From a virus (lineage: Duplodnaviria > Heunggongvirae > Uroviricota > Caudoviricetes): a stretch of 26,501 nucleotides of DNA. The stretch lies in IMG/VR virus record IMGVR_UViG_2698536418_000022, one strand, 5' to 3'. A program made the translations under genes and the position numbers. Positions within the stretch are counted from its first letter, which is position 1; each line of letters opens with the position of its first letter. The notes under the pieces are model-generated. The model had not been told where the DNA came from. It did not search any database and saw only the letters and a list, made by a program, of their open reading frames with translations. Shown in pieces: positions 19,256-24,287 of this stretch.

Positions 19256-19641
19256 GGCTGGTATCCCGTCACGCGCTGCCACTCCTGCGAGAAGAGGGCA
19301 GAAAGGCGGTTAAATTCAGCGGTGTATTCACTCAGCGAGGCACACCCGCCAGCAGTGCGATGCGCCAGCATTGCCGCAAATACGGAGGCCGGGGAGTCGT
19401 AATACGCCAGCAGTGATTCTCCGTGTGGTGTCAGGCAGTGCAACGCCAGCCCGTGTGGTGTGAAGTCCACGCGGTAGCAGTCGTCTACTGTGAAATAAAG
19501 GGTGTCTGCATTCTCCGGTTTTGTGGTGCGTGCTCTGTTGTCACGACCACGGATGTAGAGATCAAATAATCCCTGAAGAACGGGAGCCAGACGGGTGTCC
19601 TGTGTGCGCACCCATCTTGTGAAGTCATGAGCGTCAATCAT
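19252..19641 (-). CDS. hypothetical early-operon protein (129 aa)
   Basis: ATG at 19639-19641; stop overlaps the A start by 4 nt (translational coupling). Confidence 0.5.
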   Translation of the reverse strand: MIDAHDFTRWVRTQDTRLAPVLQGLFDLYIRGRDNRARTTKPENADTLYFTVDDCYRVDFTPHGLALHCLTPHGESLLAYYDSPASVFAAMLAHRTAGGCASLSEYTAEFNRLSALFSQEWQRVTGYQP

Positions 19642-19713
19642 GCTGCAATTCTCTTTACTACAGATGTGCGAAGGCCTCCCGCCGCAAGGTGCAGGAAAGG
19701 CCCGGAACAGGAA

Positions 19714-19944
19714 TTAATGGGGTTTGTTTTGCTGCTCGATGAGCTGCTGAAGCTCGCGCAGATCATCCGCCAGATAGCTAAATACTGCGGCGGAGTAGGC
19801 GTTTGACAGCACGTGGCTGTGCTCATGTGACATGTTGATGAACATGATACGAGCGACGCGTGATGCGCGGTAAAGTCTGCGGTTGATTTCAGTCTGGATG
19901 TGACGACGCGCAGCGTATGCGCGCTGTTGTTTGCGGTTTGCCAT
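19714..19944 (-). CDS. hypothetical small basic protein (76 aa)
   Basis: ATG at 19942-19944; same strand and operon context as A. Confidence 0.5.
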   Translation of the reverse strand: MANRKQQRAYAARRHIQTEINRRLYRASRVARIMFINMSHEHSHVLSNAYSAAVFSYLADDLRELQQLIEQQNKPH

Positions 19945-20121
19945 GGGGTGGCCTCTTTGGTTGTAAGTTTTGAAAACTCACCATCCAGAGGTGGAAAACT
20001 CGGGGTGGTGAGACGTACAGGGTTTCCACAACCGGCAACCAAAGAACCCGGCCCGACCGAAGTCGGCCCTGTACGCCCCACCATAATTCGTGTGCGAAAA
20101 AGACGTGGCGATACGGTACGC

Positions 20122-20144
20122 ACAAAAAAACCGCTGGCGCGGTT
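20122..20144 (-). terminator. rho-independent terminator (minus strand) within the early operon
   Basis: On the minus strand: stem AACCGC / GCGGTT with a 4 nt loop, followed by TTTTTTT. Confidence 0.6.
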
Positions 20145-20266
20145 GTGCGCTTTGGTTGTCAGCGGGGTGGAAATCCCGGCACCCGTTTTATGAGGTGCAG
20201 CGGAAATGTAACCTGACTGATTGCGGCATGGCAAGCGGTTTTTTTGTGTGTGCATGTTCTGGTTTC

Positions 20267-21052: not shown

Positions 21053-21469
21053 CTATGCGTTAAATACGGCACGTTGCGCGTCATCAATGAATACAGCTTG
21101 AGAGCGTTCTATCAGGCGGAGATTTGTCAGAAGCTCTGACTCTTTTGTGTGGTAAGGCGTTATCAGGTATTTGCCGTGCAGTTCGGCAATAATGGTGTAT
21201 TGCGTCATTATTGCCGAACCAAGAATGTAAATGCGGCGTCCAATGCTGGACGGATTCATGGCTGCAACTGTTGACTGTGTTTTAAGAGTATCGATTTCTT
21301 TGCCCTGTTCCTCAATAATTTTGGCTGCGTCAGCGGTGATTTTTGCAATGGTCAGTGCGTGAAGTGCTGCCATATGTTGGCTACGCTTCACGGCATCTTT
21401 AGCCATTTCATCTTCCGCTTCTGATATTTTTTTTAATGTGTCGATAATGCCTTCTTCTTTTGCTTTCAT
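21053..21469 (-). CDS. hypothetical protein with N-terminal coiled coil (138 aa)
   Basis: ATG at 21467-21469 with GGAG RBS; preceded by a ~90 bp AT-rich gap. Confidence 0.5.
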   Translation of the reverse strand: MKAKEEGIIDTLKKISEAEDEMAKDAVKRSQHMAALHALTIAKITADAAKIIEEQGKEIDTLKTQSTVAAMNPSSIGRRIYILGSAIMTQYTIIAELHGKYLITPYHTKESELLTNLRLIERSQAVFIDDAQRAVFNA

Positions 21470-21561
21470 TTTATATCTCCGTTATTTACGCGTGCGAATA
21501 CCTCCATTAATACGGATGGTTTTCACGTTTTCTTATTTAATTTGATGTTTTATTTGTATCG

Positions 21562-21675
21562 TTATTCATCAGAGAAAAAACGCTCGATCTTTTTCACTGA
21601 ATTAATAATTCGCATAATCCCAATGGCGCAGACCACCGAAATAATCAGAACAAGCCATGAGATAAATATACTCAT
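21562..21675 (-). CDS. 37-aa small hydrophobic membrane peptide (MSIFISWLVLIISVVCAIGIMRIINSVKKIERFFSDE)
   Basis: Below the ORF-track size cut-off; found by hand translation. ATG at 21673-21675 in an ATGA overlap with the stop of the upstream gene. One predicted TM helix then a basic C-terminal tail. Confidence 0.4.
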   Translation of the reverse strand: MSIFISWLVLIISVVCAIGIMRIINSVKKIERFFSDE

Positions 21676-21914
21676 GCGATATTTCCCAGCTTATACGGTT
21701 CAATATGTTCCCCGCATTCTGCGGCACAGATCAGCTCGGAAAGTTCGTTAAGTGCATCCAGATCATCAGCGTAAAAAGCCACGTCATACAGACTTCGGAT
21801 TGCTCTGGTCAATGAGTCACGGGCCGCACGTTCAGCATGAGCGCCTGATGCACTTAAGCGAAAATAAAAACGCTCAAGTGCTTTGTTAATGAGAGTTTTA
21901 TATTCTTTGCCCAT
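21672..21914 (-). CDS. hypothetical protein (80 aa)
   Basis: ATG at 21912-21914 (track start is a GTG one codon upstream). Confidence 0.5.
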   Translation of the reverse strand: MGKEYKTLINKALERFYFRLSASGAHAERAARDSLTRAIRSLYDVAFYADDLDALNELSELICAAECGEHIEPYKLGNIA

Positions 21915-21925
21915 CACAACGCCCT

Positions 21926-22213
21926 TTAATCTGCTTTCTGTATTTCAGCTTCTGAATCCATACAAATAATTTCGATATAGGGTTCATCGGCATTAACCTG
22001 GCGTGCCTTTTCAGCTTCGCTAATGATTTCTCGTACGGTCTGGTACGGAAGTTCCACAAGCAGTCGCGTGCCGTTCAGATAAACGTAAGTGGCTTCGTCG
22101 GTTCCGTTTTTACCCGCCGGAGTCACTCCGTCAATAGCGGATGCACGTAATAACAGTTCACCGCGAAAATCAATAAAACGGATAAATACACCTTGTGCAT
22201 GGTCTTTGGTCAT
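21926..22213 (-). CDS. hypothetical protein (95 aa from the internal ATG)
   Basis: Start placed at ATG 22211-22213; the track start at 22327 would overlap the upstream gene by about 100 nt. Confidence 0.45.
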   Translation of the reverse strand: MTKDHAQGVFIRFIDFRGELLLRASAIDGVTPAGKNGTDEATYVYLNGTRLLVELPYQTVREIISEAEKARQVNADEPYIEIICMDSEAEIQKAD

Positions 22214-22223
22214 AAAGCGCCTG

Positions 22224-22562
22224 TTATAAATCAGCCTGTTTAATAAAACTTTGCCCGCGAAGCAGACGATCAACCGTGCGAAGTGCTTCGTATAATGTGA
22301 AATCCTGCCCGAACTGATTGTCGCCACAGCTCAATGCAAAAATGCGGTTTCCGGTAAACGGATTGCGTGGGCATTTGTGGATCACGATTCCAGCTTTCTC
22401 AATCAGCCAGGCGTGCTCGCCGATTTGTTTTACTGGGTAGCCATCCGGCGTTGCGTGTGTATCACTCAGGCTGTAGCGGATGTTGCTGCGTGATGCACTG
22501 GTAGTGAAACGGTTAGCGTGGCGTTCTGTTCCGGTACGAAAATTACGGCGTTGCTTCAGCAT
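22224..22562 (-). CDS. hypothetical early protein (112 aa), second gene of the early operon
   Basis: ATG at 22560-22562, 15 nt after the cox-like stop. Confidence 0.5.
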   Translation of the reverse strand: MLKQRRNFRTGTERHANRFTTSASRSNIRYSLSDTHATPDGYPVKQIGEHAWLIEKAGIVIHKCPRNPFTGNRIFALSCGDNQFGQDFTLYEALRTVDRLLRGQSFIKQADL

Positions 22563-22951: not shown

Positions 22952-23260
22952 ATGCTTATCGGTGAAAAAATTAGAGTGATTCGTGAATCAGAGGATTTAA
23001 CGCGCGAAGAATTTTGCGGCCTGATTGATGTGCCTATCGGCACTTTGCGTCGTTATGAAACGGGGCGGATTGAAAACATAGGGGGCGAAGTGCTTATCAA
23101 GATTGTTAATCACCCTCGCTTTTTTAAGTACATGAATTGGCTTATGACGGGAAAAACAAATGAGGCTGCTGGGCAGATCAGTCCGTCTCTCTCCCCTGAT
23201 GGGCCAAAAAGCACATCGCCTTCTCAAAAACCCCGCAAGACTGGCACACAGCCCGGCTAA
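22952..23260 (+). CDS. immunity repressor (P2 C-like)
   Basis: Start placed at ATG 22952 (MLIGEKIRVIRESEDLTREEF...). HTH plus FFKYMNWLMTGK...AAGQISPSL resembles recalled P2 C (FTKYTLWFMT...ESGQIAPAL). Confidence 0.8.
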   Translation: MLIGEKIRVIRESEDLTREEFCGLIDVPIGTLRRYETGRIENIGGEVLIKIVNHPRFFKYMNWLMTGKTNEAAGQISPSLSPDGPKSTSPSQKPRKTGTQPG

Positions 23261-23309
23261 TCATGGAGCGCTGGGGGCATGGTGGTCTTGTAACGCTGGG
23301 GTTTCACGA

Positions 23310-24287
23310 ATGAGCATAAAATCAATTCCGGGAGGGTATCTTCTTGACATGCGCCCTGAGGGGCGTAAAGGCAAACGCATTCGCAAAAAATTTAAAACGA
23401 AATCGGATGCAGTTTTATATGAGCGGTGGGTGCTGGCGCAACAGCATAACAATGAGTGGAAAGGAAACTCTATTGATCGCCGTCCTCTGTCAGTGCTTAT
23501 TGACTTGTGGTGGAAATACCACGGCCAGCTAATGAAGTCAGGGCATAACACGCGCCTTAAATTGCTGCGCTTGAGTGAGGCAATGGATGACCCGTGCGTG
23601 CATAAACTTAATACAACAATGCTCACCGAGCTACGTGTGTCCAGGATAGAGCAGGGGATACAGCCCAGCACCATAAATCGAGAGATTGGGGCGTTAAGCG
23701 CGATGTTTACCGCACTCATCTCATCCGGCCATTTTCTTAATGATAACCCCGTTCAAGGCCTTAAAGGAATGAAGGTTAACGAGCGTGAAATGGGATATCT
23801 GAGTAAGTCTGAATGTGTTCAGTTGCTGGATGCACTGGCTGAAAATCCCGATGAACGGCTGGCTGTCGAAATCCTTCTGTCGACCGGGGCGCGATGGGGC
23901 GAGGTAGCGGCACTGGAGCAGCGCCGTGTTCTTCATTGTCGAATCACTTTTTCAAAAACGAAGAACAGCAAAAACCGTACCGTTCCTATTTCTGAAAGCC
24001 TGTTTGAAAAGATCAAAAAACGGGGCGGGAAACTGGTGTTTCCGACGCTGGATTATCCATTGGTTCGCGATGTCATCAAAACGGTCGCACCTGATGTTCC
24101 CGACGGCCAGGCTGTTCATGCGCTGCGCCACACCTTCGCCAGTCATTTCATGATGAACGGCGGCAATATTCTGACGCTCCAGAAAATTCTGGGGCACGCA
24201 AAGATTCAGACAACGATGATTTATGCCCATCTTGCGCCGGATTACTTGCAGGATGCGGTGAGGTTTAATCCCTTGGGAGGAATGTAA
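23310..24287 (+). CDS. int: tyrosine integrase (P2 Int-like)
   Basis: Start placed at ATG 23310 (MSIKSIPGGYLLDMRPEGRKGKRIRKKF...), matching recalled P2 Int. Catalytic-region motifs LSTGARWGE, HALRHTFASHF, LGH...IYAH present. Confidence 0.9.
   Translation: MSIKSIPGGYLLDMRPEGRKGKRIRKKFKTKSDAVLYERWVLAQQHNNEWKGNSIDRRPLSVLIDLWWKYHGQLMKSGHNTRLKLLRLSEAMDDPCVHKLNTTMLTELRVSRIEQGIQPSTINREIGALSAMFTALISSGHFLNDNPVQGLKGMKVNEREMGYLSKSECVQLLDALAENPDERLAVEILLSTGARWGEVAALEQRRVLHCRITFSKTKNSKNRTVPISESLFEKIKKRGGKLVFPTLDYPLVRDVIKTVAPDVPDGQAVHALRHTFASHFMMNGGNILTLQKILGHAKIQTTMIYAHLAPDYLQDAVRFNPLGGM

Follow-up and report, generated by a model that had tools for sequence, protein, structure and literature searches.

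Does an open reading frame of 37 codons in the early operon of a P2-like phage encode a genuine protein, and if so, what could its product do? The question arises at one locus within a 26,501-nucleotide stretch of viral DNA (IMG/VR record IMGVR_UViG_2698536418_000022), which is called the window below. An original prediction, made from the sequence alone, had placed there an unannotated gene for a hydrophobic peptide, translationally coupled to the gene upstream of it. No strand was given, and the description matches the minus strand only. The locus is defined by the following features:

21562 to 21675, minus strand: small membrane protein gene of 37 codons (coordinates include the stop codon); homologue of P88 gp07, identical to WP_000021666.1
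21672 to 21914, minus strand: DUF4754 gene (80 aa), the upstream member of the predicted coupling; Pfam PF15946, E = 2.9e-54
21672 to 21675, minus strand: ATGA overlap between the stop codon of the DUF4754 gene and the start codon of the small gene, a putative coupling signal, from sequence and conservation

Translated from its ATG start to its TAA stop, the small gene yields the product MSIFISWLVLIISVVCAIGIMRIINSVKKIERFFSDE. The ATG is the first start codon available in this frame past the preceding stop, and it shares four bases (ATGA) with the TGA stop of the DUF4754 gene, as had been claimed; in the gene's own orientation, the start context reads ...ATCGCATGAGT.... This overlap was kept in 88/88 loci, namely those of the comparison described below in which the upstream gene could be delimited. 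The Shine-Dalgarno sequence of the small gene was calculated at -4.6 kcal/mol; the eight genes compared span -3.8 to -10.7 kcal/mol, and the cox-like gene alone has a weaker one. Such a weak Shine-Dalgarno sequence fits initiation by coupling, and together with the ATGA overlap it supports the predicted translational coupling to DUF4754.

The description of the gene as unannotated could not be upheld. It holds for the ORF track used for the original prediction only; public records carry the small gene as follows:

Phage P88: gp07, 'membrane protein', YP_009113050.1
vB_EcoM-569R5: 'putative membrane protein'
P88_4B11: 'hypothetical protein'
E. coli O157:H7 FRIK944 (PGAP): WP_000021666.1
E. coli O157:H7 EDL933 (PGAP): WP_000021655.1

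P88 gp07 is the same gene: it is 114 nt long, lies directly 3′ of DUF4754 and shows the ATGA overlap. Membership of the window copy in the gp07-like cluster follows from homology over the full length and from its position after DUF4754, with ATGA, in a P2-like early operon. Alleles of this family differ at residues 15, 25, 27 and 34-37, which is nothing material, and their database records report no function or experiment. Using tblastn, we found 84-92% identity over 37/37 residues to the copies in P88, P88_4B11, 569R5, 520873 and Shae_phiSM. In the last of these, a Citrobacter phage, the small gene is present at 89% identity and no CDS is listed. The exact 37-aa protein is contained in NCBI and UniRef (as 'Prophage membrane protein'), in a cluster of 118 members, and occurs on at least 1000 contigs. 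A profile search headed by a 41-aa homologue returned 151 clusters, all of them 'hypothetical'. Almost all belong to Escherichia (coli, albertii, fergusonii), and occasional members come from Salmonella, Shigella and Citrobacter. These clusters describe a narrow family with its centre in Escherichia. The small gene is thus already known in public databases and no surprise for a phage specialist; it is a well-supported very small gene that some pipelines still miss, as in Shae_phiSM. With the gene itself already in GenBank and RefSeq, the residual value lies in the widespread and inseparable pair that the peptide forms with DUF4754.

Annotation of an open reading frame does not show that its protein sequence matters, and conservation was therefore analysed across 96 related loci. 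Eighty of these are viral contigs anchored on DUF4754; the remainder consists of phage and E. coli records, E. albertii (the one locus given by a DUF4754 scan of genome contigs) and contigs encoding diverged homologues. As DUF4754 is 99-100% identical in all 80 viral-contig loci, their diversity is limited; diversity was supplied by the contigs encoding diverged peptide homologues. The locus set was chosen via an intact DUF4754 and an N-terminal peptide motif, so that the sample is biased to intact copies; the motif, which was also used for picking alleles, matched in 96/97 loci, and the one locus without a match, L050, is frameshifted near its beginning.

Frame conservation in close relatives had been set beforehand as the refuting test. 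In all 26 unique alleles carrying the N-terminal motif, the first 33 codons are without a stop. Of the antisense frames, the best one is free of stops in 12 of these 26 alleles; the remaining frames are so in 0-2. Exceptions to the conserved frame are a C-terminal frameshift variant in about 8 of 95 loci and a disruption in one or two. The test thus did not refute the gene. Pooled according to Nei-Gojobori, dN/dS is 0.27 in the frame of the small gene; the two alternative sense frames give 1.07 and 1.47, and the adjacent DUF4754 gene gives 0.36. These values were computed pairwise on non-independent alleles. Split by region, dN/dS is 0.29 in the transmembrane part and 0.44 in the tail. Variable sites are distributed over codon positions 1, 2 and 3 as 23/9/28. 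A sparing of position 2 is expected of a hydrophobic helix, and nearly all replacements in the helix are swaps among I, V, L and M. A gene on the opposite strand was considered as well and rejected, since the dN/dS of 0.38 in one antisense frame is a mirror artefact, caused by third positions that the two frames share, and fewer than half of the alleles keep this antisense frame open.

Size by itself says little at this locus: the 4.5-kb stretch around the small gene is overlapped by 68 ORFs of 25 aa or more, and the gene stands above chance due to its conservation (dN/dS, open frame, ATGA overlap) and not its ORF size. When 1.84 billion representative proteins were scanned exhaustively with the peptide by HMMER, eight cluster representatives were obtained, including 41-aa proteins at 50-62% identity, which retain both the architecture and the synteny of the 37-aa product. 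Examples of such diverged homologues are MSVFLSWVILIISVLMAIGIMRIIEALKNIESLFTGEERRK, MNILISWLILILAIICAVGTMRIINGIKTIESLFTGDKRHK and MSIFMSWVVLVLAIIFAIGIVKIITVIKAIEALFTGDKHHK; their genes are located directly 3′ of DUF4754 in P2-like prophages with differing neighbours, and the diverged loci (L088-L096) share the identical 4-nt overlap. Based on the substitution pattern, the conserved frame and the synteny, the small gene is a genuine protein-coding gene under purifying selection, as the original prediction had supposed.

The protein sequence was then examined for hints of localization. Two parts can be distinguished:

21613 to 21669, minus strand: predicted transmembrane helix IFISWLVLIISVVCAIGIM, codons 3-21
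21565 to 21612, minus strand: juxtamembrane, amphipathic and charged tail RIINSVKKIERFFSDE, codons 22-37; hydrophobic moment 0.75

Residues 3-21 reach a maximum Kyte-Doolittle 19-residue mean of 2.81, which ranks first when compared with all mechanical ORFs of similar size in the window (180 of 30-60 aa over six frames; 99th percentile 2.51). This value and rank back the claim of one transmembrane helix followed by a charged tail. The further wording 'basic tail' is roughly right: the tail carries four basic (R22, K28, K29, R32) and three acidic residues (E31, D36, E37), the former near the membrane and the latter mostly at the extreme C-terminus, and the net charge is only +1. Among 15 unique core proteins, S6, W7, L10 and G19 in the helix and I23, I24 and K28 in the tail are invariant, and the last four residues are variable or dispensable. 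According to the positive-inside rule, the uncharged N-terminus of two residues (Met-Ser) together with the cluster R22/K28/K29/R32 past the helix leads us to predict an N-out/C-in orientation. A lipoprotein or a cleaved signal peptide was rejected: Cys16, preceded by V in the window copy, is M or F in homologues, and a charged n-region is missing.

What kind of element carries the gene? The DNA around it is 85-96% identical to P88-like phages (Xuanwuvirus, Peduoviridae, P2-like) and 100% identical to E. coli O157:H7 FRIK944 over 451 bases. The region recurs at 1510 places in the 5426 complete E. coli genomes searched, of which 1361 carry it, nearly always in the chromosome; hence approximately 25% of these genomes, those of O157:H7 among them, contain a small protein family without a curated model. 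An integrase and a C-type HTH repressor are encoded on the plus strand and the early operon on the minus strand, which is the P2 layout. The operon starts with the cox-like gene (92 aa), followed by DUF4761, phrog_3800, DUF4754, the 37-aa ORF, a 92-nt gap and phrog_9338 (138 aa). Downstream of the latter are a 67-aa gene, genes for a MarR-type winged-helix protein and an Ead/Ea22-like protein, and the remaining genes as far as that of the replication endonuclease A. With a minus-strand operon running from the cox-like gene to A, the proposed early-operon placement in a temperate phage was borne out.

Several observations concern gene models and RNAs of this operon and its surroundings. The phrog_9338 gene (21053-21469, minus strand, 138 aa) is intact in the window and is called 'frameshifted' (418 nt) by PGAP in the otherwise identical FRIK944 (L005 2962-3379); the window therefore probably stems from another strain or assembly that is closely related to this record. 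For phrog_3800, the match covers residues 39-133 only of a 133-aa mechanical ORF (21926-22327, minus strand), and the PGAP gene has 288 nt. The integrase has 325 aa in PGAP versus 375 aa in the mechanical ORF (23160-24287, plus strand), which overlaps the repressor gene. Further, Rfam matches within the early operon were obtained for a C4 antisense RNA (RF01695, 82 bits, E = 1e-15; 20001-20088, minus strand) and for the IsrK Hfq-binding RNA (RF01394, 64 bits; 20124-20198, minus strand), both just upstream of a 'derepression/ash family' gene. As they lie inside a 205-aa mechanical ORF (19638-20255), that ORF is probably no gene. Going by the Rfam match, the C4 RNA locus is an immunity module of the P1/P7 C4-ant type within a P2-like phage.

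Among the compared loci, DUF4754 always accompanies the small ORF, and the pair stays intact while flanking genes change on both sides. Upstream, phrog_3800 (between DUF4761 and DUF4754) is present or absent; downstream, the next gene encodes 138, 92, 162 or 71 aa. The best-supported reading of the locus is, consequently, that DUF4754 and the peptide form an invariant unit, putatively coupled in translation, in an otherwise mosaic early operon. The two partners show no obvious covariation: DUF4754 is identical across four loci (L001-L004) in which the peptide differs. Fusions of both proteins, which could have served as a Rosetta stone, were rejected, as forms of 103-128 aa are frameshift read-throughs from few contigs or upstream extensions. 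An AlphaFold model of DUF4754 shows a three-helix bundle (pLDDT 88.6). Foldseek searches of this model against PDB and BFVD resulted in generic helical-bundle matches only (E > 0.1), and a profile search of PDB with DUF4754 gave no match.

The original prediction had suggested the architecture of a small membrane toxin or inhibitor, with inhibition of cell division or exclusion as possible roles. Databases and literature were searched for hints of a specific function of the peptide. In Pfam (E <= 0.1), the 37-aa product matched only DUF2975, with 13 bits versus a cut-off of 27. There was no match in PHROGs or NCBIfam, and no relative in a sequence search of PDB. PADLOC gave no match for the peptide and an 11-bit chance match for DUF4754; the neighbouring genes were otherwise without match. 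Rfam (E <= 1) was searched over 21400-22000 with no match. Promoter-like sites at the small gene are at chance level (three found, 3.8 expected). The literature retrieved on DUF4754, the protein accessions, CP-933T, P88 and the fil and dhr genes of phage 186 contained nothing about the small gene, nor does the P88 paper discuss it. A holin or single-gene lysis protein was rejected, as the small gene is part of the early operon between cox and A, and no holin-like Pfam or PHROG match was found.

Considering the anatomy of the protein and the constant company of DUF4754, we propose with moderate confidence that the peptide is a single-pass inner-membrane protein and acts in early lytic growth as one half of a two-protein accessory module together with DUF4754. 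For its topology, expression timing, partnership with DUF4754 and host-directed role, we infer the following steps. Going by gene order, the small gene would be transcribed, as fifth cistron of the cox-to-A operon, only upon derepression of the early lytic promoter. Ribosomes ending DUF4754 would re-initiate at the ATGA, and both proteins would be made together. The helix would be inserted N-out/C-in, with the tail lying as an amphipathic helix on the cytoplasmic face of the membrane. In the least certain step, the peptide may tether DUF4754 to the inner membrane, or it may contact a host membrane protein, possibly via a face formed by the invariant S6-W7 and small residues (S13, A17, G19). 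The module could then act on the host envelope or on a membrane process. It would be accessory and dispensable for core P2-type replication, since P2 and 186 lack the small gene. Small single-pass membrane proteins that are made early by phages and act on host processes are known from SPO1 (Gp56) and T4 (Imm, Sp), and have approximately 80-100 aa. The peptide would resemble them in being early, small, membrane-anchored and accessory. However, their sequences are unrelated, they are larger, and hosts or targets differ, so that the functional analogy is speculative.

Of the alternatives, inhibition of host cell division fares best, but we consider it unlikely. The peptide would block a component of the divisome and thereby cause filamentation, like Fil of phage 186, Kil of lambda or Gp56 of SPO1. 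The small gene belongs to the promoter-proximal block of the early operon, where 186 has fil ('overexpression blocks cell division') and dhr; like the peptide, Fil and Dhr are small accessory proteins whose genes lie between that of the cox/apl switch and those for replication. A single-pass architecture is compatible with binding of bitopic divisome proteins, as in SPO1 Gp56 and Blr, and by analogy the peptide might suit such partners. Nevertheless, BLASTP to Fil gave no alignment at E <= 100, and homology to Fil, Dhr or P2 Orf78 was rejected. None of these is of the transmembrane type of the peptide, and Fil (75 aa) and Dhr (66 aa) are without an N-terminal transmembrane helix. In addition, no family match and no literature on a phenotype were found, and in mosaic operons the positional analogy is weak. 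Somewhat further removed is the idea that the pair constitutes a self-contained module with which P88-like phages take over the host. The pair would then either be anchored in the membrane and inhibit a host machine of the envelope, of division or of transport, or consist of a toxin and its chaperone; we hold this to be improbable.

Superinfection exclusion, or another anti-phage action at the membrane such as a block of DNA injection in the manner of T4 Imm and Sp or of exclusion proteins from prophages, appears quite improbable to us. Injection blockers commonly take the form of small inner-membrane proteins, a likeness which the peptide may share, and the element is widespread in E. coli, as given above. 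On the other hand, the small gene is located in a repressor-controlled early lytic operon and has no promoter of its own above chance, and should therefore not be expressed in the lysogen, the state in which exclusion is of advantage. The PADLOC search yielded nothing apart from the insignificant match of DUF4754, and the exclusion genes of P2 (old, tin, fun) lie elsewhere.

A membrane-damaging toxic peptide that is neutralised or chaperoned by DUF4754, as in a toxin-antitoxin-like or abortive pair, is very improbable. Gene order, sizes (80 and 37 aa) and the ATGA overlap resemble type II toxin-antitoxin operons, and the pair is inherited inseparably. In its size range, one very hydrophobic helix and a charged end, the peptide is similar to type I toxins (Hok/Gef, Ldr, TisB, Ibs, ShoB). 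In contrast to these, the small gene is without an antisense RNA (by Rfam), a promoter of its own or an mRNA fold-back element and is coupled inside an operon. Membership in the type I toxins proper (Hok, Ldr, TisB, Ibs, ShoB, Zor) was also rejected since, besides the missing antisense RNA and promoter, no toxin family model in Pfam or NCBIfam matched. Further, the antisense frame is not conserved, the fold of DUF4754 shows no DNA-binding or antitoxin-like match, and the pair sits within a long operon and forms no stand-alone addiction locus.

The region downstream of the small gene bears on the last alternative, in which the product itself is irrelevant. Two features are found there:

21470 to 21561, minus strand: 92-nt non-coding gap between the small gene and the phrog_9338 gene (138 aa), from sequence and alignment
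21501 to 21517, minus strand: small hairpin ATCCGY-N4-RCGGAGG within the gap, found in 93/96 loci and predicted in the RNA MFE fold

The stem of this hairpin persists in diverged loci despite differing flanks, and its loops vary (ATTC, ATTA, ACTC, ATCT, AACG, AACA). The closing pair covaries between C:G and T:A, with a G.U pair in the window copy, and folding of the RNA resulted in z = -2.1. As a T-run is missing, the hairpin is not a classic terminator, and a terminator search around the small gene found none. The hairpin corresponds in position to tR1 of 186 and to a putative terminator of P2; like the small gene, fil and dhr of 186 precede a non-coding gap, and the one in 186 holds tR1. Translation of the ORF as an anti-polarity measure or as a leader controlling the downstream hairpin or genes, or an ORF that is not translated at all, would be in line with this conserved hairpin following next, with the weak Shine-Dalgarno sequence and with a C-terminal end tolerating truncation and frameshifts; however, a dN/dS of 0.27, conserved second codon positions, maintained hydrophobicity and invariant residues across 50-60% divergence speak for purifying selection on the amino acid sequence, which contradicts a purely positional spacer or leader ORF, and the hairpin, 45-60 nt beyond the stop, is too far away for direct ribosome occlusion, making this the least probable of the explanations considered.

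If expression of the proposed membrane protein and its partner caused a phenotype in growth, division or the membrane, this would provide the first function for two widespread orphan families and could bring to light a small protein that inhibits a membrane process of E. coli.

The C-terminus of the small protein occurs in forms of 37, 41 and 45 aa in total length. The 41-aa form, found in diverged homologues, is the longest apart from the frameshift form. In the 37-aa form, codon 38 is replaced by a TAA stop, and homology runs on beyond this stop. The 45-aa form is found in the approximately 8 of 95 loci mentioned above and arises when a -1 frameshift hits one of two runs, the A-run at codons 28-29 or the following site, which was recognized from alleles and their alignment:

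21575 to 21580, minus strand: T6 run in codons 32-34 (CGT TTT TTC), site of a -1 frameshift

Both homopolymer sites lead to one alternative 45-aa C-terminus (...FSL.NN..NKT..) in different allele backgrounds. This variant could represent tolerated variation, prophage decay or homopolymer sequencing errors. The frequency of the 45-aa variant and the one or two disrupted copies indicate that the tail end is not strongly constrained. Given such a plastic C-terminal end, the functional core would comprise residues 1-27, or up to 33. Some prophage copies of the small gene may be decaying. The most divergent match to the small gene is contained in Escherichia phage 503458 (NC_049341.1; L099, 125-470), where DUF4754 as well as the small gene is broken by several frameshifts, and where the annotated DUF4754 is a truncated protein of 70 aa only; this copy is uninformative, and its frameshifts are probably due to a decaying prophage or to homopolymer sequencing errors.
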